Virus record (IMG/VR): IMGVR_UViG_3300027741_000049
Origin: an uncultured virus (IMG/VR IMGVR_UViG_3300027741_000049)
Taxonomy: Duplodnaviria; Heunggongvirae; Uroviricota; Caudoviricetes
Reading direction: 5' to 3' (one strand)
Length of the DNA stretch: 64,000 bases
This document shows positions 3,956-44,300 of the stretch, piece by piece. A program made the position numbers and the translations under genes. Within the stretch, counting starts at the first letter, position 1. Every line of letters begins with the position of its first letter. Under the pieces are notes generated by a model that saw only the letters and a program-made list of their open reading frames with translations, was not told where the DNA came from and did no database searches.

Positions 3956-4162
3956 ATGAAAAATCCTTTAGCACCTGAAAATGCTCAACCTATGGGCACA
4001 CCCTTTGAAGAAGGTCAAGCAGATCAAATCGACCCTAAAACAGGGCGAGACTCTAGTGACGTTACACCCGGCGGTGCAGAAACTATGCAAATCAACATTG
4101 TTGATCGTAGCAGCGATACTACTCACGAAGGCGACATGGGTCGTCTAGGCAAAAGCGAATAA
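3956..4162 (+). CDS. acidic, likely disordered hypothetical protein
   Basis: ATG at 3956 right after upstream stop, AGGA SD; 68 aa. Confidence 0.55.
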   Translation: MKNPLAPENAQPMGTPFEEGQADQIDPKTGRDSSDVTPGGAETMQINIVDRSSDTTHEGDMGRLGKSE

Positions 4163-4201
4163 GCCTTAATTATTTGCACACACAACACACAAGGATATAA
4201 T

Positions 4202-4429
4202 ATGAATCCCTTTGAATTACGTACAAAATTGCTGGAGATGGCCACAGACCATTTAAAGCGTCAACATGAAATCAACTGTGACTTTGCCAAAGAAACTTTT
4301 GCAGAGATGATTAAAACTGGTCAGGCCTTGCAAAAAGACTACCAAAAGTATATGCCAAAAATGTATACTTTTGAAGATGTAGTTAGCGAGGCACAAAAGC
4401 TATACGGGTTTGTCAACAATGCTAAGTAA
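4202..4429 (+). CDS. conserved small phage protein
   Basis: MNPFELR..LLEMA...AQKLYGFV pattern; AAGGA SD. Confidence 0.65.
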   Translation: MNPFELRTKLLEMATDHLKRQHEINCDFAKETFAEMIKTGQALQKDYQKYMPKMYTFEDVVSEAQKLYGFVNNAK

Positions 4430-5834: not shown

Positions 5835-6353
5835 ATGGATCAAAGACAAAGACAAGGAATGCCTTTTGGGTTTCCTATGATTCCCTACATTGCTCCACCG
5901 CCTCCAGTAGTTCCGGGTTGGTGCCCACCACCGTTTCCAGAAGACGATGTATTTATTAATTATGCTCCAGGAAGTCTTCCAGGACCACCGGGCCCACCCG
6001 GACCCCAAGGCCCAGCAGGCCCCGAAGGCCCGCCAGGCCCGCTTGGACCACAGGGTCCCCCTGGGTCGTTGGCAAACTTGCCGGTTACCTTAGTAGATTC
6101 GGCAGCTTACCCAGCTACTAATACTGACTACTTTATTGGAGTAATTTTTAATGGCGCAACTACAATTACATTACCAGCTGGTACACTAGGCAAAATATTT
6201 ATTATCAAGGATAGTGTGGGCGACGCACTGACAAACCCAATTACTGTAGTTGCAACTGCTAGTACACTAGATGGTGCAGCAAACTACGTAATTGATTCGC
6301 CTTGGGGCTCCATTGGCCTTATATACAATGGAATTGAATGGAATGTAACATGA
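5835..6353 (+). CDS. collagen-like protein with C-terminal fibre-type beta domain
   Basis: About 10 G-X-Y triplets (GPP/GPQ) followed by TITLP...[16 protein letters not shown]...LDG...W domain. Confidence 0.75.
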
Positions 6354-6422
6354 GTTACAACAAGCCACTGCCCATTTAGTAGGCACAATTAATTACGTTA
6401 CTCAACCTTAATCTTTACCAAA

Positions 6423-6614
6423 ATGTTTAATCACGATATTTCTACGTTAAATCCTACACAAGCTATTGCAATTGCAAGTGCAGTAGAATCCCTAGACGAT
6501 TTAATTGAATCGGCTACTAGTTTTGTTAAAAACGGCGGACAAAGTTATCGCAGTTTTTTACAAAACCGTGAACAGTTAATTACAAAAATTTGTGAATTAC
6601 CAAACTGCAAATAG
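6423..6614 (+). CDS. hypothetical protein
   Basis: 63 aa ORF. Confidence 0.5.
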   Translation: MFNHDISTLNPTQAIAIASAVESLDDLIESATSFVKNGGQSYRSFLQNREQLITKICELPNCK

Positions 6615-6629
6615 TAAAAAATTTCTGAC

Positions 6630-6658
6630 TTGAAATTTGGTAATGATTGGGGTATAAT
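6630..6658 (+). promoter_or_regulatory. sigma70-type promoter
   Basis: TTGAAA-17 nt-TATAAT. Confidence 0.8.
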
Positions 6659-6693
6659 ACTTATTCATTAGGAAATTTCAACAAAACACAAAT

Positions 6694-6909
6694 ATGCAAA
6701 AAACAAACCGCTTTGATTTTGAGCAACAAATGATGGATTGCTGGGGTGTAGTAGATGATATTAAAACCATCTACTATCTTGGCGACTTGCGTGATACAAC
6801 CGAAGACGAAATGCAGAATTTACTGCTAGGCTTGTTTACTATGTATCAAGTTAAGTTTGAAGTTTTGCAAAAAATGTTTGAAGATTTGATTTACAGCAAA
6901 CAATTGTAA
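6694..6909 (+). CDS. conserved small helical phage protein
   Basis: RFDFEQQMMDCWGVVDDI...NLLLGL..MY..KFE.L pattern. Confidence 0.65.
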   Translation: MQKTNRFDFEQQMMDCWGVVDDIKTIYYLGDLRDTTEDEMQNLLLGLFTMYQVKFEVLQKMFEDLIYSKQL

Positions 6910-6916
6910 ACGGGTA

Positions 6917-6951
6917 GCTACTTGGCAGTTCAATCCTGCCAAGGAGCACCA
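6917..6951 (+). ncRNA. tRNA minihelix-like element (acceptor plus T arm only)
   Basis: GCTACTTGGCAG-TTCAATC-CTGCCAAGGAGC-ACCA: 12-bp helix with one mismatch, T-loop, NCCA. Confidence 0.55.
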
Positions 6952-6982
6952 TACAAAAGCCTAGTTTATCTGGGCTTTTGTA

Positions 6983-7277
6983 TGGTTGTATGAAACAAGC
7001 CGAAAGGCGCGCTGGACGTGGGTTCGACTCCCACCTGGTCCACCAAAAACACATTAAGGCGATGCATAGCCGTGGTACGCGTTACCTCTGTAAGTGTGGT
7101 GTGCTTTTGATGGGCCAGTCATGGTTTCGACAGTGTGATAAGTATGTGAGTGGACAACTCGGTAGGCGATCTCCGCAAAAGAAGCAAACTATATAAATGC
7201 CAATGATGAGGTATTTGCCTTAGCTGCATAAGCTAATGCCGAGGTATGCCCCCGCCTTGTAACCAAGGGGGCTTTTT
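6983..7277 (+). ncRNA. ssrA: circularly permuted (two-piece) tmRNA; tag (A)ANDEVFALAA
   Basis: Piece with T arm and CCA end GGACGTGGGTTCGACTCCCACCTGGTCCACCA (ends 7045), hairpin intervening segment 7046-7111, then GGGCCAGTCATGGTTTCGAC at 7112 giving a G3-U70 pair; tag ORF 7199-7231; terminator hairpin 7247-7277. Confidence 0.93.
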
Positions 7278-7291
7278 ATTGGATAAATCTT

Positions 7292-7924
7292 ATGGCTAAC
7301 AGAAAACTTGATAGTGATGATTTTATGCTAGACACAGGTCTTAGCCGAGGATTTCGTAAATCTGGTTCTGCTATCTACGAGTTCTACCTAAGTGGAACTA
7401 TTACAGGACCTGAAGACTATATTGAGTGGTTTAACACTATTCGTAGTGCAGGACCACAAGACGAAGTAAAAATTTATATTAACAGCAGTGGTGGCGATTT
7501 AAATTGTGCACTACAATTTATGCGTGTGCTTAGTGAAACGCAAGCTACTGTTATTTGTAGTGTTGAAGGTAGTTGCATGAGTGCTGCTACAATGATCTTT
7601 TTATGTGCCGATGTATTTGAAGTTACTCCGCACAGTTTATTTATGTTTCACAACTACAGCGGCGGTATTTTTGGCAAAGGCGGCGAAATCTATGATCAAG
7701 CTGTTTTTGAACGTGAGTGGTCTAAACAGTTTTTACAGCACATCTACAAAAACTTTTTAACTAGCAAAGAAATTGACAGTTTACTAGAAAACAAAGACTT
7801 GTGGCTACACAGCGAAGAAGTAAGCAATCGTGTAGAAAAATTATGTGAAGCTAGAACTAAGGAACAAGAAGATGCTCGTAACGCCCTGTCAGGGGATTTG
7901 CAAGATGAATCCAACAACGAATAA
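7292..7924 (+). CDS. clpP: ClpP-like serine protease
   Basis: IYINSSGG, G.CMSAATMIF (catalytic Ser), FMFH (His), KDLWL. Confidence 0.85.
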   Translation: MANRKLDSDDFMLDTGLSRGFRKSGSAIYEFYLSGTITGPEDYIEWFNTIRSAGPQDEVKIYINSSGGDLNCALQFMRVLSETQATVICSVEGSCMSAATMIFLCADVFEVTPHSLFMFHNYSGGIFGKGGEIYDQAVFEREWSKQFLQHIYKNFLTSKEIDSLLENKDLWLHSEEVSNRVEKLCEARTKEQEDARNALSGDLQDESNNE

Positions 7925-8054
7925 ATGTACTGGATGTTTTAGAACACTAGAAGAAATTATTAATTGGACTAGCTATACGGAACAACAAAGAGTGGCTATA
8001 ATGCAAAGATTATATTATGAAAACGATTTTGTCATTGTTCGACTACAGCGGTAA
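7872..8054 (+). CDS. DUF1289 family small Cys protein
   Basis: TPCQGICKM...CTGCFRTLEEI..W......R..I motif. Confidence 0.8.
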   Translation: MLVTPCQGICKMNPTTNKCTGCFRTLEEIINWTSYTEQQRVAIMQRLYYENDFVIVRLQR

Positions 8055-8580
8055 TTGGCCTAAATACTACAAAGAGGCTGGTTATAATGTGCTACAAGTA
8101 GACATTAAATGCGGTATTGATATACTGCAACTGTCGGCTAGAGATTTGCCCGATCAAATACATGGCATTTTAGCTGCTCCACCTTGTACTGATTTTGCAG
8201 GCAGTGGCGCACAATACTGGAAACAAAAAGATTTAGACGGCAGAACTGACCAGAGTTTAAAACTAGTAGACAAAGTTTTGCGAATGGTAGACTACTATAA
8301 TCCCGAATTCTGGGCACTAGAAAATCCAGTTGGCAGACTGCAAAAGCTGCGTCCTGAATTAGGTGATCCTTGGTATTTTCAACCACACTGGTTTGGTGAT
8401 CCATACACCAAGAAAACTGGATTATGGGGCAAGTTTAATCGTGATTTGCCTAAGTGTCCAGTCGAGCCTGACCCTAATTCGTGGATAATGAAACTAGGCG
8501 GCAAATCGGAACGAACTAAAGAATTACGATCAATGACACCGCTAGGATTTGCCTTTGCATTTTTCCTAGCTAATCCATAG
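8017..8580 (+). CDS. small C5-cytosine DNA methyltransferase-like protein
   Basis: ILSLFDYSG (motif I), APPCTDF (motif IV), LENPVG (motif VI), terminal RS.TP.GFA.AFF.AN. Confidence 0.8.
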   Translation: MKTILSLFDYSGNWPKYYKEAGYNVLQVDIKCGIDILQLSARDLPDQIHGILAAPPCTDFAGSGAQYWKQKDLDGRTDQSLKLVDKVLRMVDYYNPEFWALENPVGRLQKLRPELGDPWYFQPHWFGDPYTKKTGLWGKFNRDLPKCPVEPDPNSWIMKLGGKSERTKELRSMTPLGFAFAFFLANP

Positions 8581-12509: not shown

Positions 12510-13145
12510 ATGATGAAACAAACCGTTGCAATTTTTGTTCATGATCCTGTGTGCGAAGTAGAGTGTGCACTAGCTATGGAAGCTGCACTTCAAGATAAAT
12601 TTGAAGTAAAGTTGTTTGGCATTGAAGATCTTAATAGTAAATTTTTGCTTAATGTAGATATTCTGGCTTTTCCTGGCGGCATTGGCGACAGTGATGAGTT
12701 TGATGAAATTTTTGAGCCAGATCATGTTGACGTAGTTCGTGACTTTGTTAGCGATGGTGGCAAATATTTAGGTATTTGCATGGGCGCTTACTGGGCTGGC
12801 AGCTATTACTTTGACATTCTTCACGGTATTGAGCCTGTACAGTATATTTCTCAGCCAGATGCAGATATTGTAACTGAAGGCCCTACTCTTGCAAGTGTAG
12901 AGTGGAATGGTCAGCAAGAAGATATGTATTTTTATGATGGCTGTGCTTTTGTTGGTAATTTAAGTTTTACTGATATTATTGCTACTTATGCCAATGGTGA
13001 CGCAATGGCAGTTTATCAAAATACAGTAGGGCTGATTGGTTGTCATCCGGAAAGCGAACAGTGGTGGTATGAACTAGATGATTTTGTTGGTTGGCATGAA
13101 GGTTATCATAATCAACTTTTTTGTGAGTTTGTGGAAGGTCTATGA
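12510..13145 (+). CDS. BPL_N / class I glutamine amidotransferase-like protein
   Basis: FPGG, GGKYLGICMGAYWAG (nucleophile-elbow Cys), HPE. Confidence 0.75.
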   Translation: MMKQTVAIFVHDPVCEVECALAMEAALQDKFEVKLFGIEDLNSKFLLNVDILAFPGGIGDSDEFDEIFEPDHVDVVRDFVSDGGKYLGICMGAYWAGSYYFDILHGIEPVQYISQPDADIVTEGPTLASVEWNGQQEDMYFYDGCAFVGNLSFTDIIATYANGDAMAVYQNTVGLIGCHPESEQWWYELDDFVGWHEGYHNQLFCEFVEGL

Positions 13146-14095
13146 CACTTAAACAGTACCTAGATAGTGCAAGTCAAGCTTATTATGCAGGCTTACCTAT
13201 TATTAGTGATTTGCAGTTTGATCGCCTAGCTGAAACTATTGGATATTCAGCCGTAGGCGCACAGGCTCAAGGCGCTAAAGCTAAGCATTATTATCCTATG
13301 TATTCTCTACAAAAGCACTACGAAGATGAGGGTAAGGCTAATCCACTAGCGGGCATGGGCGATATTAGCATGAGCGTTAAACTTGATGGCGCTGCTGTTA
13401 GTTTGTTGTATGTAGATGGTAAATTAGTGCAAGCACTTACTCGTGGTGATGGAGTAGAGGGTCAACTAATTACCGATAAACTGCTTAGTACTGCAAGCCT
13501 AGTTCCACATACTATCCCTTACAAAGAAGTAATTCAAGTTACTGGCGAGATTGTTGCTCCACAACATATTTCTAATGCTAGAAATTATGCTGCTGGTAGC
13601 CTTAATCTTAAAGATACTACTGAATTTGGTACTCGTGCTATTAGTTTTTTTGCATACGGTGTTCAGCCATTTGTAGGACAAACTTACGATGCCGATATGC
13701 GTATGCTAAAGCAGTTTGGTTTCAATACTGTGCAGGAAACTGATTTAGAAAAAATTTATCCTACTGACGGTGTAGTATTTAGGCTTAACAACAATCACCA
13801 GTTTGAACAACTAGGTTATACTAGTAAACATCCACGAGGTGCTTATGCTCGTAAAGAGCGTGCTGATCATGTAGAAACTAAATTGTTAGATGTTGAATGG
13901 CAAGTTGGTAAAAGTGGCAAAGTAACACCAGTAGCAATCTTAGAGCCTGTGTTAATAGGTGATGCTATGGTCAGCAGAGCTACACTAAATAATCCAGGTT
14001 TTATTGAAGCACTAGGCCTAGAAATTGGTGATACTGTAGCAGTAGTACGCAGCGGAGAAATAATTCCCTGCATTTTACACAAGGTAGAGGCATAG
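13142..14095 (+). CDS. ligA: NAD-dependent DNA ligase subunit A (adenylation plus OB domains)
   Basis: KLDG, ALTRGDG, NARNYAAGSL, DGVV, WQVGKSGKVTPVA, RATLNN, RSGEIIP. Confidence 0.93.
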   Translation: MTLKQYLDSASQAYYAGLPIISDLQFDRLAETIGYSAVGAQAQGAKAKHYYPMYSLQKHYEDEGKANPLAGMGDISMSVKLDGAAVSLLYVDGKLVQALTRGDGVEGQLITDKLLSTASLVPHTIPYKEVIQVTGEIVAPQHISNARNYAAGSLNLKDTTEFGTRAISFFAYGVQPFVGQTYDADMRMLKQFGFNTVQETDLEKIYPTDGVVFRLNNNHQFEQLGYTSKHPRGAYARKERADHVETKLLDVEWQVGKSGKVTPVAILEPVLIGDAMVSRATLNNPGFIEALGLEIGDTVAVVRSGEIIPCILHKVEA

Positions 14096-14106
14096 AAAAT
14101 TTTCAC

Positions 14107-14135
14107 TTGCAAAACCTAGCCTAATACTGTATAAT
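14107..14135 (+). promoter_or_regulatory. sigma70-type promoter
   Basis: TTGCAA-17 nt-TATAAT. Confidence 0.75.
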
Positions 14136-14161
14136 ACATTATTAAATTTGAAAAACGCACA

Positions 14162-14923
14162 ATGAAAATCAAAATTCCCACTAATTGTCCGTGTTGTGAG
14201 TATACCCTAGAGCTTGTTAACGATCAACTTTTTTGTCGTAACCAAGCCTGTGGTGCACAGTTAGGTAAAAAATTAGAGCATTTTTGTAAAACATTGGGCA
14301 TCAAAGGCATGGGTGCTAAAACACTAGAAAAACTTCAACTAAGTGATATTACTGAAATTTATTATCTTGAGCTTGATGAAATTATTGCGGCATTAGGTAG
14401 TGAAAAAATTGCAGTAAAACTACTAGATGAAATTAATCGTTCTCGTAACAGTGATTTAGCAACCATATTGCCTGCTTTTAGCATACCGCTTGTAGGTAAC
14501 ACAGCAGCACAAAAAATCAGCAAAGTAGTGCATAGCATTGATGATATTACCGAAGAACAGTGTAAACAAGCAGGTCTAGGAGAAAAAGTTACTAATAATC
14601 TAATCTCTTGGCTAGAGACAGATTTTCAAGAAATGAAAGAGTTCTTGCCATTCTCTTTTACAGTAGATAATAAACCAGTAGCCAATGCAATCGGCGAAGT
14701 TGTTTGCATAACTGGTAAGTTAGCTTCATTTAAAACTAAAGCAGAAGCCACAAAAGCACTAGAAAATGCAGGTTTTAAAGTTACTGATTCAGTAACTAAA
14801 CAAACTAATTATTTAGTAGATGAAGATAACAAAGGCAGTTCAAAACGTATTAAAGCCGATCAACTCGGTATTACAATCATCAAAAACTTATTACACTTCT
14901 TAAACGAGAAAAAATATGACTGA
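14162..14923 (+). CDS. NAD-dependent DNA ligase subunit B (Zn finger, HhH, BRCT)
   Basis: CPCC...C.N..C, IKGMG, IPLVG, VCITGKL...SVTKQT.YLV...SSK..KA..LGI. Confidence 0.9.
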   Translation: MKIKIPTNCPCCEYTLELVNDQLFCRNQACGAQLGKKLEHFCKTLGIKGMGAKTLEKLQLSDITEIYYLELDEIIAALGSEKIAVKLLDEINRSRNSDLATILPAFSIPLVGNTAAQKISKVVHSIDDITEEQCKQAGLGEKVTNNLISWLETDFQEMKEFLPFSFTVDNKPVANAIGEVVCITGKLASFKTKAEATKALENAGFKVTDSVTKQTNYLVDEDNKGSSKRIKADQLGITIIKNLLHFLNEKKYD

Positions 14924-40833: not shown

Positions 40834-41334
40834 TTAAGCTACTGTAACTTTCCAAGTAATAACTAGGGTATCTAACGCACCTTTGTTAATAACACTAAAA
40901 GTTGTGCGACAAAGCATTTTTCCGCTTGTGCTTGCATTAAAAATTCCTGCTTCTGTAATAGCAGCTGTTCCAACACCTGGATTAAAAGTAGCAACATACT
41001 GAACACTATCATCACTAATTGTAGTTTGTGCAATAGTAGTGCTGTCTAAGGCTACTCTAGCGACTTCTCCAAATAAAGCTGAATCGCTTTTTTGCTCTGC
41101 AGTAGTACTAGTGCCAATAGCCATATGTGTCATAATAGTTGGCAGACCGGTTGCAGGCATTACACCGCCTGTTCCCGCGGTTCCAGAACTATTAGAAAAC
41201 ATTCTAGCAGCAATGTATCTTAGGCCATCATTGACAACTACATTAGTTTCGTCTCGTTCTTGTTTAATATTGCCTAAATGGTCTATAAGTTTTATATTTA
41301 GCTTACCGCAGGCATTTAGTGAATCATCTAACAT
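40834..41334 (-). CDS. virion structural protein (baseplate/fibre-associated)
   Basis: N.VVN.G, MAIGT, ATF.PG.GT.AITEAGIFNA...G.ML.R..F..INK...DTL.ITW motif. Confidence 0.65.
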   Translation of the reverse strand: MLDDSLNACGKLNIKLIDHLGNIKQERDETNVVVNDGLRYIAARMFSNSSGTAGTGGVMPATGLPTIMTHMAIGTSTTAEQKSDSALFGEVARVALDSTTIAQTTISDDSVQYVATFNPGVGTAAITEAGIFNASTSGKMLCRTTFSVINKGALDTLVITWKVTVA

Positions 41335-41354
41335 TTTAATTTCCTTTTGAAAAG

Positions 41355-44300
41355 TTAACCTATAAAGGTTGTATTTGTGCCTGCATATCCAGGCTGAACA
41401 TAGTCAGTGGCAAAATAATCCTGCCTATTTGTTGTTCCAGAGCCAGAAGTTATTATTGTATCCGTAAATTTTTTGTCTATGTATTTAAGATAATTTATTA
41501 TTTCTGATATTGTTACTTGATCTGTAAAAGTTCTTTTAGTATTTGACTTAAATATTAAAGTCTGAGAAATTGTAGCATTGTCTATAAATAATATTGGGGT
41601 AAATTTTATATAAGTTAAATTATTACTATTAGTTGTTGTAGTATCCAACAACACTATTTTACGTTTAAATATTAAATTCTGAGTAGTAGTATTAGATGTA
41701 TCATTTATTTTGTTTAAAACAGAGAAAACAGGTCTAACGTTTACAGTATTAGCATTGTGCAGAGACACTACTTTGCTAACTTTAAATACTGGTCTAACAT
41801 GACTACTAATAAAACTATCTAGTATATTATAAACTCGTTTAATAAATATACTATGACTAGTTGTTGTAGTATCTAACAGTACTATTTTACGTTTAAATAT
41901 TAAGGTTTGATTAGTACTAGCTGTATTGTTTATTTTGTTTAAAACAGAAAAAACAGGTCTAATATTTACAGTATTAGCATTATCTAAACTTAGTGCTTTG
42001 TTAACTTTAAATACTGGCCTAATGTGATCACTAATAAAACTATCTAGTATATTATAAGCATAAATTCGTTTAATAATTATACTGTGACTAGTTGTTGTAG
42101 AATTTAATAGTATATGTGCAACATTAAATTTTATTTGATGTGCAGTAGTAGCTGTTTGCTTTTTAAGCAAAGATATTAAAAATTTTGGATTTATAGTACT
42201 AGTATTACTATAATCTGGACTTAATTTTTTAACGGTTTTAAACTTAATACTATCACTAGTTTGATAAGTATTAGATACTAAAATATTACGTATGGTTGTA
42301 TAAGTAAAATTACTATAAATAGTAATAGTATTATTTATAGATTTTTTAGTATTAAAACTTATTCTATTATTAAAGGTACTAGCACCTATTTCTAAAAAGT
42401 CTATATAGAACTCAAAGTGTTTATGTGCAGACAGTAAACTATCACTAGTATTTAACGTATTTACTATTGTTGGTTTTATATTAAGCTTTTTAGTTTCTGC
42501 TATTATACTATTTGTATCAAATAAATTAAACCGTCGTATTCTGTTAAATATAATATCGCTGTCATTACTAGTAGCAGCGTCTAAATAATTTCTTTTATAG
42601 TTAACTGTACGATCAAAATAAACATCATATGGATTTATATACTTATTTATAGGCGATTCTAATTTAAGCTTAACTGTAAAATATCTTTTTTCAAACTGAT
42701 TAATATTTACTAAGTTTACTATATTAGGTTTAATATTAAGTTTTACTTTTTCATTAAACGAGTAATATACTGTGTGTTTTACTCGTTTAATGAAAGTTTT
42801 TGAGGGTAAAAATTGTAATGAAAATACTGTAAGATTACTAAGTATTTTATTAAAATCTTTACTCAGGAAATCATCTGTGCTTGCTAAATAATCATCTACA
42901 TACTGATTAAAATATATTAAAGATTTTAAACTATCATTAGATATAACTTGATTAGTTTTAAATACGCCTAATTTAATAGTATTTAAATCACTAAATAAAA
43001 CATTATCAATAAAGTCTCTTTTAGTTACTAATTTAATTAAAGTATTAGTTTCAATAATTTCATTAAATTCTCTAATAGCACTAAACTGACGCAAAAAATT
43101 ATCTTGAATAGTAACTTCATCAATTTTATTTATTAGTGCACTTATACTCAAATAGCTATTAATTTTAACATCATCTTGTTTTAAACTTAATATTTTTAAT
43201 GCAATGTTATCAGTATCATACGCAAATAAATCTAACTCTGATTTATTATAATTAAAAATTGTCCTAGTTATAAAAGTTGTTGGAATTTCAGCAATATCAA
43301 ATAATATTTTTCCAATCAATGCAGTTTGATCATCATCAATATTACTAAACCCAAAATAGTCGTCTGTAGGGTGTATATAATCTTGCAGGTTACGTATATA
43401 ACTAACAACAGTAAATTTTGAATCTAAAGTATTATTAGTAACGCTACGTAGTTGTTTTTTTGGTTTAAGTAAAACATTAGCTACAGTTATATTAGCAGTG
43501 TTGTATCCTTGTATTATTTTTTTAAAGTTAACCGCCTTACTGTCTTTATTAGCTAGATTTAAATACTGTTGTTGTAAAATAATGCTTAAAAAACTTTTAT
43601 AAGTTTGACTAGTAATAACATAATCTTCGTACTTATTTTTTAACTTAGCAAGTATTTTTTGACTAGTAACAACAATATTATTATTTATACCCTTGATAGT
43701 TTTAAAATAAAACTTACTATCGAAGGCATCTGCATCATTTGTAAAATTACGAAAAAATTTAACTACAAGCCTTAGCTGACCATCTATAAGATATCCGTCT
43801 CCAGAAACGCTTGCTCTGATTTTTACACGATCATTTGTGCGTTTTTTGTAAAAATTTGCAGGAGTTATTGTGTCAACACTAACTACAGGATATAAGTTTT
43901 TAAAATATTTAAATTTAAATTCAGTTTGTAATATTTGTTTAAATTCTAAAAACGGTTTAATTAAGCGTTTTCTTAAGTAAACTTCTAAGAAATTTACTTG
44001 GTCTTCTCCACGAGCAAATTTACTAAATGGTAAAGTAAAATTATTACTGCTTATATCTGTGTCTACTAAAGTAGATAAATCAATATTTTGACTAGGCGCA
44101 TCTAGACCTTTTATAGTTATATCAAAATTTAAACTACTTGTGTTAACCTCAGTAATTAGATCTCTAATATTTATTTGAGCAATAGTGTCATCAGAATTAG
44201 TACTAGTATTTAAATCTTGTATATTAACATTAGTTTCTAGAGTATTTATATCACTGTTAACAGTTGTATCAGCTATATTTATTTTACTAATATCTAGTTG

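Follow-up and report, generated by a model that had tools for sequence, protein, structure and literature searches.

Here, we analyzed 64,000 nucleotides of DNA from an uncultured virus (IMG/VR record IMGVR_UViG_3300027741_000049; this whole stretch is called the window in the following), in which a permuted transfer-messenger RNA (tmRNA, ssrA) gene is directly followed on the same strand by a gene for a protein resembling the protease ClpP. A first reading of the letters alone, referred to below as the original prediction, had described the pair as a working trans-translation module of a phage. The tmRNA proved to be real and conserved, the protease has a ClpP fold, and the adjacency of the two genes holds in close relatives, whereas the coupled module is unsupported as stated: the ClpP-like family is common without tmRNA, there are tmRNA phages without ClpP, and the N-terminal 27 residues of the protein show no recognizable resemblance to the axial or docking region of ClpP. 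With a probability of roughly one half, we regard the two as co-expressed neighbours within an early island of genes for translation and proteostasis and not as obligate partners, the tmRNA benefiting the phage mainly through ribosome recycling with host factors and the protease acting on substrates of its own. The tmRNA is of a published kind and the protease belongs to a known phage family; the one less ordinary feature is the gene order of ssrA followed by clpP, which is conserved but optional.

A complete two-piece tmRNA gene

The plus strand from 6984 to 7280 carries a complete two-piece tmRNA gene of the betaproteobacterial type, which is kept by selection. ARAGORN called a permuted tmRNA at 6953-7322 with the tag ANDEVFALAA followed by a stop, the sole such call in the window. 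In Rfam, RF04321 (tmRNA_permuted) matched 6984-7231 with 131.6 bits (gathering score 47) and RF01850 (beta_tmRNA) matched 6927-7290 with 128.4 bits (gathering score 84), both over the full model length. The check with ARAGORN and the permuted-tmRNA models of Rfam that had been proposed with the original prediction was thus positive with both, and reading of the sequence bore out all coordinates given there.

The acceptor piece (6984..7045), i.e. the 3′ part of the tRNA-like domain, contains the first strands of the inter-piece helices, the T arm (stem 7018-7022/7030-7034), the acceptor 3′ strand (7035-7041), the discriminator A (7042), and an encoded CCA (7043-7045). It is followed by an intervening segment (7046..7111), which is presumably excised and whose ends pair with each other, thereby extending the acceptor stem. 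The coding piece (7112..7280) begins with the acceptor 5′ strand GGGCCAG (7112-7118), which forms the 7-bp acceptor stem including G7114-U7039, the G3-U70 pair. It further contains the second strands of the inter-piece helices, the tag frame ANDEVFALAA with its stop and an alanine resume codon (7199..7231), and a 3′ hairpin (7248-7272) followed by a T run that reaches to about 7280. The two inter-piece helices (6984-6989/7154-7159 and 7008-7014/7131-7137) were read from the sequence and are both present in the Rfam alignment. Folding of the acceptor stem together with the intervening segment gave −30.9 kcal/mol (z = −2.75; 2 of 200 shuffles as good). Self-pairing of the intervening segment had been proposed before, and it is supported by this fold and by covariation in the closing helix.

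For analysis of covariation, 26 phage copies of the tmRNA were aligned (the window, 20 loci found via the ClpP-like protein, and 5 found via a tmRNA motif) and the helices of the window were projected onto the alignment. Standard pairs occupied 93.8% of 871 cells, compared to 47-51% when the 3′ partners were slid by 1-3 columns; this slid control favours a structure derived from one of the aligned sequences, while double changes are independent of that. Both sides had changed in 24 of the 35 pairs, and none of 500 shuffles reached the observed values. All cells of the acceptor stem (100%) and of the T stem (100%) were paired, and 3 pairs of the acceptor stem covaried. For the inter-piece helices 6984-6989/7154-7159 and 7008-7014/7131-7137, pairing was 99.4% and 95.4%, respectively, with double changes in four pairs of each. 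The helix closing the intervening segment was paired in 85.7% of cells with double changes in 6 of 7 pairs, and the interior of the segment was unalignable. G3-U70 was a G-U pair in 26 of 26 copies. This strong covariation of the helices together with the invariant G3-U70 pair indicates that the gene is under selection. The acceptor stem, the inter-piece pairings, and the tag described in the original prediction are thus all supported by the sequence and the alignment. All 22 phage copies checked with Rfam scored above the gathering score; RF04321 matched 17 of 17 ARAGORN-called loci checked and, in addition, L012, L029, L030, L032, and L009 (L denotes loci and G genomes or contigs of our collection). 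Tags of the type ANDxx[FY]ALAA are also found in relatives.

Such RNAs have been described before. PMC11915505 documents permuted tmRNA for three groups of bacteria as well as 79 unique tmRNA sequences from phages. Buchholz et al. count 133 unique phage tmRNAs, 53 of them two-piece, with the OM43 myophage Melnitz and pelagimyophages as examples, and propose the upkeep of hijacked translation machinery or the tagging of host proteins for amino-acid recycling as roles (PMC9004378). The window gene shares with the beta-type two-piece tmRNA (RF01850; RF04321, PMC11915505) the permuted order, the 7-bp acceptor stem with G3-U70, the T arm, two inter-piece helices, an ANDxxFALAA-type tag, and the 3′ hairpin. 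It differs in being phage-encoded, in the lack of SmpB in the complete relative G002 (see below), and in the interior of the intervening segment, which is hypervariable among close relatives (about 8 nt in L004 and far longer in L014 and L022). With the tmRNAs of Melnitz and pelagimyophages (PMC9004378), it has in common a complete permuted ssrA among early genes of an aquatic phage of lytic type. Unlike those, it is of the beta and not of the alpha type, belongs to a T5-like siphophage and not to a T4-like myophage, has no riboswitch match in the Rfam scan of the window, and is directly followed by a ClpP-like gene. The term betaproteobacterial type is a label of the RNA and not of the host, and Melnitz is a published case of a mismatch between RNA type and host (PMC9004378).

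Several variants were observed among the relatives. In L004 (1174-1481), the intervening segment comprises only about 8 nt and no CCA is encoded; the same variant turns up as a loose end of a freshwater RNA-library contig. L014 (about 1700-1890) and L022 (about 1400-1660) have segments of about 190-260 nt with a small open frame, which in L014 is preceded by an AAGGAG-like site and enters the acceptor 5′ strand. T-arm-like fragments lie inside the intervening segments of L019, L052, and L068. Judged from these sequences, the intervening segment looks like a hotspot of insertion. For L019, L020, and L076 (tmRNA at 2094-2484), the 24-residue tag given by ARAGORN is due to a mis-called resume codon, and the alignment gives an ordinary ANDSQFALAA.

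Directly 5′ of the tmRNA gene, a 9-bp hairpin (6953..6981, plus strand) was inferred from reading of the sequence, and it shows a compensatory change in L003. The preceding 6912..6951 (plus strand) is what remains of a tRNA-Thr(tgt) that has lost about 39 nt internally, recognized by comparison with relatives: this tRNA is whole in L002, L006, and L008, the deletion is common to the window and G002 (L003), and ARAGORN called no tRNA at this place in the window.

A ClpP-fold protease of a known phage family

The open reading frame (ORF) at 7292..7924 (plus strand; 210 aa; phrog_1827, PF00574) starts with an ATG located 11-14 nt after the T run of the tmRNA gene. It encodes a ClpP-fold peptidase with the catalytic residues Ser97, His120, and Asp169, as sequence profiles and a structure model show. 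PF00574 matched with 41.5 bits (cut-off 20.2), placing residues 51-176 on model positions 41-168 of 182. Matches to solved ClpP chains reached an E-value of 6.8e-7 and placed Ser97, His120, and Asp169 at the catalytic positions; these three residues are invariant in 41 of 41 aligned relatives. An AlphaFold2 model of the protein had a mean predicted local distance difference test score (pLDDT) of 86.9, and the top PDB matches listed by Foldseek were all ClpP (E 5e-11 to 4e-9, query TM-score (TMq) 0.54-0.61, about 20% identity, about 155-160 aligned columns). The claim of a ClpP gene with intact motifs just past the terminator was therefore confirmed.

Compared to bacterial ClpP (S14, PF00574), the protein has the same fold, the Ser-His-Asp triad, and the handle helix; it differs by its low identity of about 20%, by a long C-terminal helix, and by its N-terminus, in which no counterpart of the axial region of ClpP is recognizable. 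Residues 1-27 are predicted to be disordered without any helix (pLDDT about 47-51) and the Pfam match begins only at model position 41, so that the part which in ClpP gates the pore and contacts the unfoldase is unrecognizable in the modelled phage protein. The C-terminal tail (alignment columns 200-270) is acidic in the clade of the window, and long and lysine-rich in many relatives, where it often ends with KKPVQ.

By profile comparison, the protein belongs to a phage family of which the 'Clp protease' annotated in T5-like phages is also a member. The best PHROG was phrog_1827 'ATP-dependent protease' (E 2e-62, 211 bits, residues 23-203 on profile positions 19-199 of 202); head-maturation PHROGs reached 4.7e-25 or weaker. 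Relatives occur in 1710 isolate records. The T5-like members (phrog_1827; K38_045 of Tequintavirus Kenya-K38; ORF45 of BF23) are likewise about 200 aa long with a ClpP fold, lie in an early region of Demerecviridae type, and coexist with a separate prohead protease. The window protein is 31% identical to that of Kenya-K38 over 93% of the query. In Tequintavirus, the gene lies between those for deoxynucleoside monophosphate (dNMP) kinase and holin/endolysin and has no tmRNA; in the one isolate record examined, Kenya-K38, none is annotated beside it. PMC10644984 states that no function is known for the T5-type Clp protease and reports the protein at low intensity in BF23 virions. From name and size only we infer that BF23 ORF45 is the counterpart of the window protein.

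A role as head-maturation (prohead) protease, named in the original prediction as an observation that would speak against it, was ruled out with the help of G002, an IMG/VR contig of 99,362 bp with direct terminal repeats that is rated 100% complete and encodes an identical ClpP-like protein (tblastn). Since G002 has a separate 662-aa ORF beside the portal gene, a fusion of Peptidase_S78 and Phage_capsid, the ClpP-like protein is not the prohead protease; the weaker scores of the head-maturation PHROGs agree with this. The ClpP-like gene sits among early genes and tRNAs and not in the head module.

Linkage and probable transcription of the two genes

For a forward survey, the best 80 of 390 confirmed IMG/VR loci with relatives of the ClpP-like protein were examined with up to 3 kb of flank. 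ARAGORN called a permuted tmRNA in 30 of the 80. Rfam was run on 17 of these 30 and on 49 ARAGORN-negative loci (L056, whose frame is cut, was counted separately and is included), which added L012, L029, L030, and L032 and a truncated match in L009. Accordingly, a tmRNA is present at 35 of 80 ClpP loci, and in the available flank of the other 45 none was detected by ARAGORN or Rfam. Of the 16 loci forming the close clade (identity of 82% or more), the tmRNA immediately precedes the ClpP-like gene in 14; the other two are cut by contig ends and have less than 135 nt of upstream sequence. The linkage of ssrA and clpP in relatives, which had been suggested as a check, thus holds for close relatives and is optional in the wider family.

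In the close clade, 58-61 nt lie between the tag stop and the ATG, and in L042 71 nt. Elsewhere the distance amounts to 0.4-2.3 kb, with the gap occupied by an OMP-like (outer membrane protein) gene, a small conserved ORF, a SleB-like hydrolase gene, and membrane ORFs, and in two loci the tmRNA lies 3.4 kb downstream. At L019 (2468-3016), L228 (6564-7118), and L247 (7121-7633), a gene for a SleB-like cell-wall hydrolase is the immediate upstream neighbour of the ClpP-like gene; this order occurs both among distant relatives of the window's family and in T4-like contigs whose ClpP-like gene is of a second subfamily.

A reverse survey started from 18 nt of the tmRNA 3′ hairpin, a motif taken from the distant relatives. 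At least 120 stretches contained it, and 80 loci were taken with their flanks, of which 61 had a permuted tmRNA by ARAGORN. ORFs were assigned to ClpP by a family profile from the aligned relatives (E ≤ 1e-5, within 3 kb, same strand). Among 53 tmRNA loci with at least 3 kb of downstream sequence, 35 had no ClpP-family ORF within 3 kb downstream. Five tmRNA contigs without nearby ClpP were searched from end to end. In the complete 150-kb G004, about 36 kb separate the tmRNA from a PF00574 ORF; the complete 190-kb G005 and likewise the three fragments gave no PF00574 match.

Among isolates, Synechococcus phage BUCT-ZZ01 (L001, ON615601.1) has its permuted tmRNA at a distance of 41 kb from its ClpP gene. 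Its tmRNA (3980-4398, tag ANDETFSMALAA) is unannotated and lies partly under a coding sequence (CDS) for a 'hypothetical protein', and a tRNA with a CTA anticodon at 2858-2933, labelled Pyl by ARAGORN, looks like an amber suppressor. In Stenotrophomonas phage Marzo, the tmRNA is part of a tRNA cluster and no ClpP is annotated within 5 kb.

A quick tree of ClpP-like proteins (79 sequences, 65 distinct; frames below 170 aa, above 240 aa or cut were dropped) leaves the immediately adjacent lineages (window clade, L275/L280, L042) in an unresolved basal position, and its supported branches force at least 2 state changes. On these sequences, immediate adjacency may have a single old origin. Taken together, the order of ssrA followed by clpP is conserved but optional. 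No publication that connects tmRNA and ClpP of phages turned up in our literature searches; the text of PMC9004378 and three of its supplementary files contain no occurrence of 'Clp'.

Hints on expression came from four lake or freshwater metatranscriptome runs, of which contigs were used; these give neither molecule ends nor strand, leave parts of the stretch uncovered, and may stem from carry-over of DNA. Contigs from relatives with 90-99% identity contain both tmRNA pieces and the ClpP ORF. One joins the tmRNA pieces by a different intervening segment of 151 nt, another spans 7152-7322 across the hairpin into the ORF, and a further one extends from 7118 through the hairpin into the ClpP start of a relative. 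The RNA-library contigs fit transcription of the region and read-through. Between the hairpin of the tmRNA gene and the start codon, a consensus scan of 6300-8100 detected no promoter, which makes read-through the probable route to the protease gene. The sole plus-strand candidate upstream of both genes is a sigma-70-like site at 6630..6658 (TTGAAA-17-TATAAT, 11/12), which is weak because the scan yielded 2 sites compared to 4.8 expected in shuffles.

The phage background and the meaning of the gene pair

We read the window as part of a Demerecviridae-like (T5-like) siphophage of about 100 kb from freshwater lakes. The phage origin assumed before is borne out by the families of the window ORFs, among them family A DNA polymerase, DnaB-like helicase, primase, SbcCD-like proteins, flap endonuclease, ribonucleotide reductase, a NAD-type ligase in two ORFs, PhoH, spanin-like proteins, and a tape measure protein of 2469 aa. 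With the polymerase of Vibrio phage Thalassa and its relatives, which belong to the Demerecviridae, that of the window shares 48% identity. Blastn against isolate phages covered only 16-17%, with matches to BUCT-ZZ01 and, for the T-arm region, to 16 Stenotrophomonas phage records. Beside the tmRNA, ARAGORN called six tRNAs in the window. A Pfam scan of 49 window ORFs detected no member of the SmpB or ClpX families, in agreement with the original prediction, and in the complete relative G002 neither SmpB (PF01668) nor a Clp-type AAA+ partner (AAA_2) was found.

G002 is 92% identical to window positions 6420-30136 at the nucleotide level. In a comparison with G002, the replication half of the window was 92% identical and the tail half (window 32000-64000), including the ORFs for the 2469-aa tape measure and for proteins of 2354 aa and 1314 aa, was unalignable; these alignments suggest an exchange of the structural module. 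The NAD-dependent DNA ligase is split in the window (13142-14923) into an ORF with adenylation and OB domains followed by one with HhH and BRCT domains. In G002, a gene for an Hsp20 small heat-shock protein (41261-41677; L185 1261-1674) lies about 1.2 kb before the part matching the start of the window and is the third gene of proteostasis type in its early region. A scan with 22 nt of the tmRNA 5′ end for the host gave 13 loci, all from metagenome-assembled genomes titled Lachnospiraceae, Clostridiales, Butyrivibrio or Bifidobacterium; these were taken for chance identity with ordinary tmRNA 5′ ends.

From these data, the following course may be proposed. The region would be transcribed early as one unit, the protease gene probably via read-through. 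In the precursor, the ends of the intervening segment would pair and lengthen the acceptor stem, and host tRNA-processing enzymes would cut at G7112 and after CCA7045. The products, an acceptor piece of 62 nt and a coding piece of about 165 nt, would be held together by three helices. Host alanyl-tRNA synthetase (via G3-U70), SmpB, which is assumed to come from the host, and EF-Tu would then employ this tmRNA to free stalled ribosomes, and the nascent chains would receive ANDEVFALAA, an LAA-ended degron of host type. The early island would comprise the tRNAs, the tmRNA, and the ClpP-like gene, plus Hsp20 in the complete relative.

The optional linkage and the absence of the phage-encoded partners from G002 were counted in favour of co-expressed neighbours as opposed to obligate partners. 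Several survey results weigh against this. ARAGORN tmRNAs beside ClpP genes of the window's family lie on the same strand in 30 of 30 cases and upstream in 28 of 30, a synteny more persistent than accident would suggest. Among the motif-picked tmRNA loci with sufficient downstream sequence, 17 of 53 have a ClpP-family ORF within 3 kb downstream, and L275, whose open frame overlaps the ARAGORN 3′ boundary, makes 18; upstream, with L275 set aside, there is one in 43 loci with at least 3 kb. Only 3 of the 18 downstream ORFs are of the window's family; 15 belong to the second subfamily (185-190 aa, 30% identical to the window's protein over 122 residues), which in L228 and L247, the two loci annotated, is accompanied by gp59-like and gp32-like genes of a T4-like backbone. 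Finally, the tag is a canonical degron of Clp type, and LAA-ended tags are recognized by ClpXP and ClpAP. Orientation bias, recurrence with the second subfamily, and the degron tag fit a functional link, and the shared position suggests that the tmRNA and the ClpP-like protein may work together. In such a dedicated tag-and-degrade module, the tmRNA would tag nascent chains whenever mRNA decay induced by the phage or RNase defences of the host stall the ribosomes, and a co-transcribed ClpP-like ring on host ClpX or ClpA would degrade the products, giving the phage control over tagging and clearance. Immediate adjacency (58-71 nt in the window clade and L042, close too in L275 and L280, the ClpP proteins of these further lineages being 50-60% identical to that of the window), same-strand downstream synteny in T4-like contigs, the LAA-ended tag with an intact triad, the missing promoter between the genes, and the RNA-library contig bridging both speak for it. 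Yet the complete relative has neither unfoldase nor SmpB, the region for pore gating and unfoldase contact is unrecognizable, each gene is found without the other (the ClpP-like family even widely so), distant relatives have 0.4-2.3 kb of unrelated genes in between, and the quick tree with its minimum of 2 forced changes leaves room for a single old origin. We consider a dedicated module possible, though unlikely. The motive of evading host defences, put forward in the original prediction, is speculative.

The opposite reading, that the adjacency is a historical accident, takes the ClpP-like protein as a conserved early or virion-associated protease of T5 type whose role would have nothing to do with trans-translation, for example in processing of phage or host proteins or near lysis, beside which a tmRNA landed in a tRNA-rich early region. 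The Tequintavirus homologue without tmRNA next to holin/endolysin, the low-intensity 'Clp protease' ORF45 of stated unknown function in purified BF23 virions (PMC10644984), the SleB-like gene before the ClpP-like gene in aquatic relatives, and the tRNA genes around the locus agree with it, but orientation bias and recurrence with two ClpP-like subfamilies in two backbones exceed random placement, even if shared descent of gene order could explain a part, and accident appears rather improbable. Far less credible is that the tmRNA-like gene is no working rescue RNA but a relic, an integration-site fragment, or a decoy blocking host trans-translation. There are precedents, since prophages often carry ssrA fragments (PMC9004378) and a phage tmRNA-like RNA without CDS that inhibits host tmRNA is on record (PMC11915505). 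The gene in question is full-length with both pieces, tag frame, and stop, its helices all show compensatory changes, and G3-U70 and tag type are invariant across 26 diverged copies; a relic or decoy was rejected on this covariation. Co-expressed neighbours which are not obligate partners remain our preferred reading.

If coupling of the two genes fails, the locus would be an ordinary example of the translation-support genes collected by large aquatic phages. A bolder and doubtful proposal is that, in aquatic phages with at least two backbones unrelated to each other (T5-like siphophages, T4-like myophages), ssrA followed by clpP is kept for a tag-and-degrade circuit of their own, in which an early read-through transcript would yield both a two-piece tmRNA tagging chains stalled on degraded host mRNA and a ClpP-like ring borrowing host ClpX or ClpA. 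If true, this circuit would provide recycled ribosomes and amino acids for the phage. The conserved order of ssrA and clpP in combination with a degron of Clp type offers a concrete, testable hypothesis for both genes, and phages with immediately adjacent genes, with separated genes, with tmRNA only, and with ClpP only form a natural set of variants.

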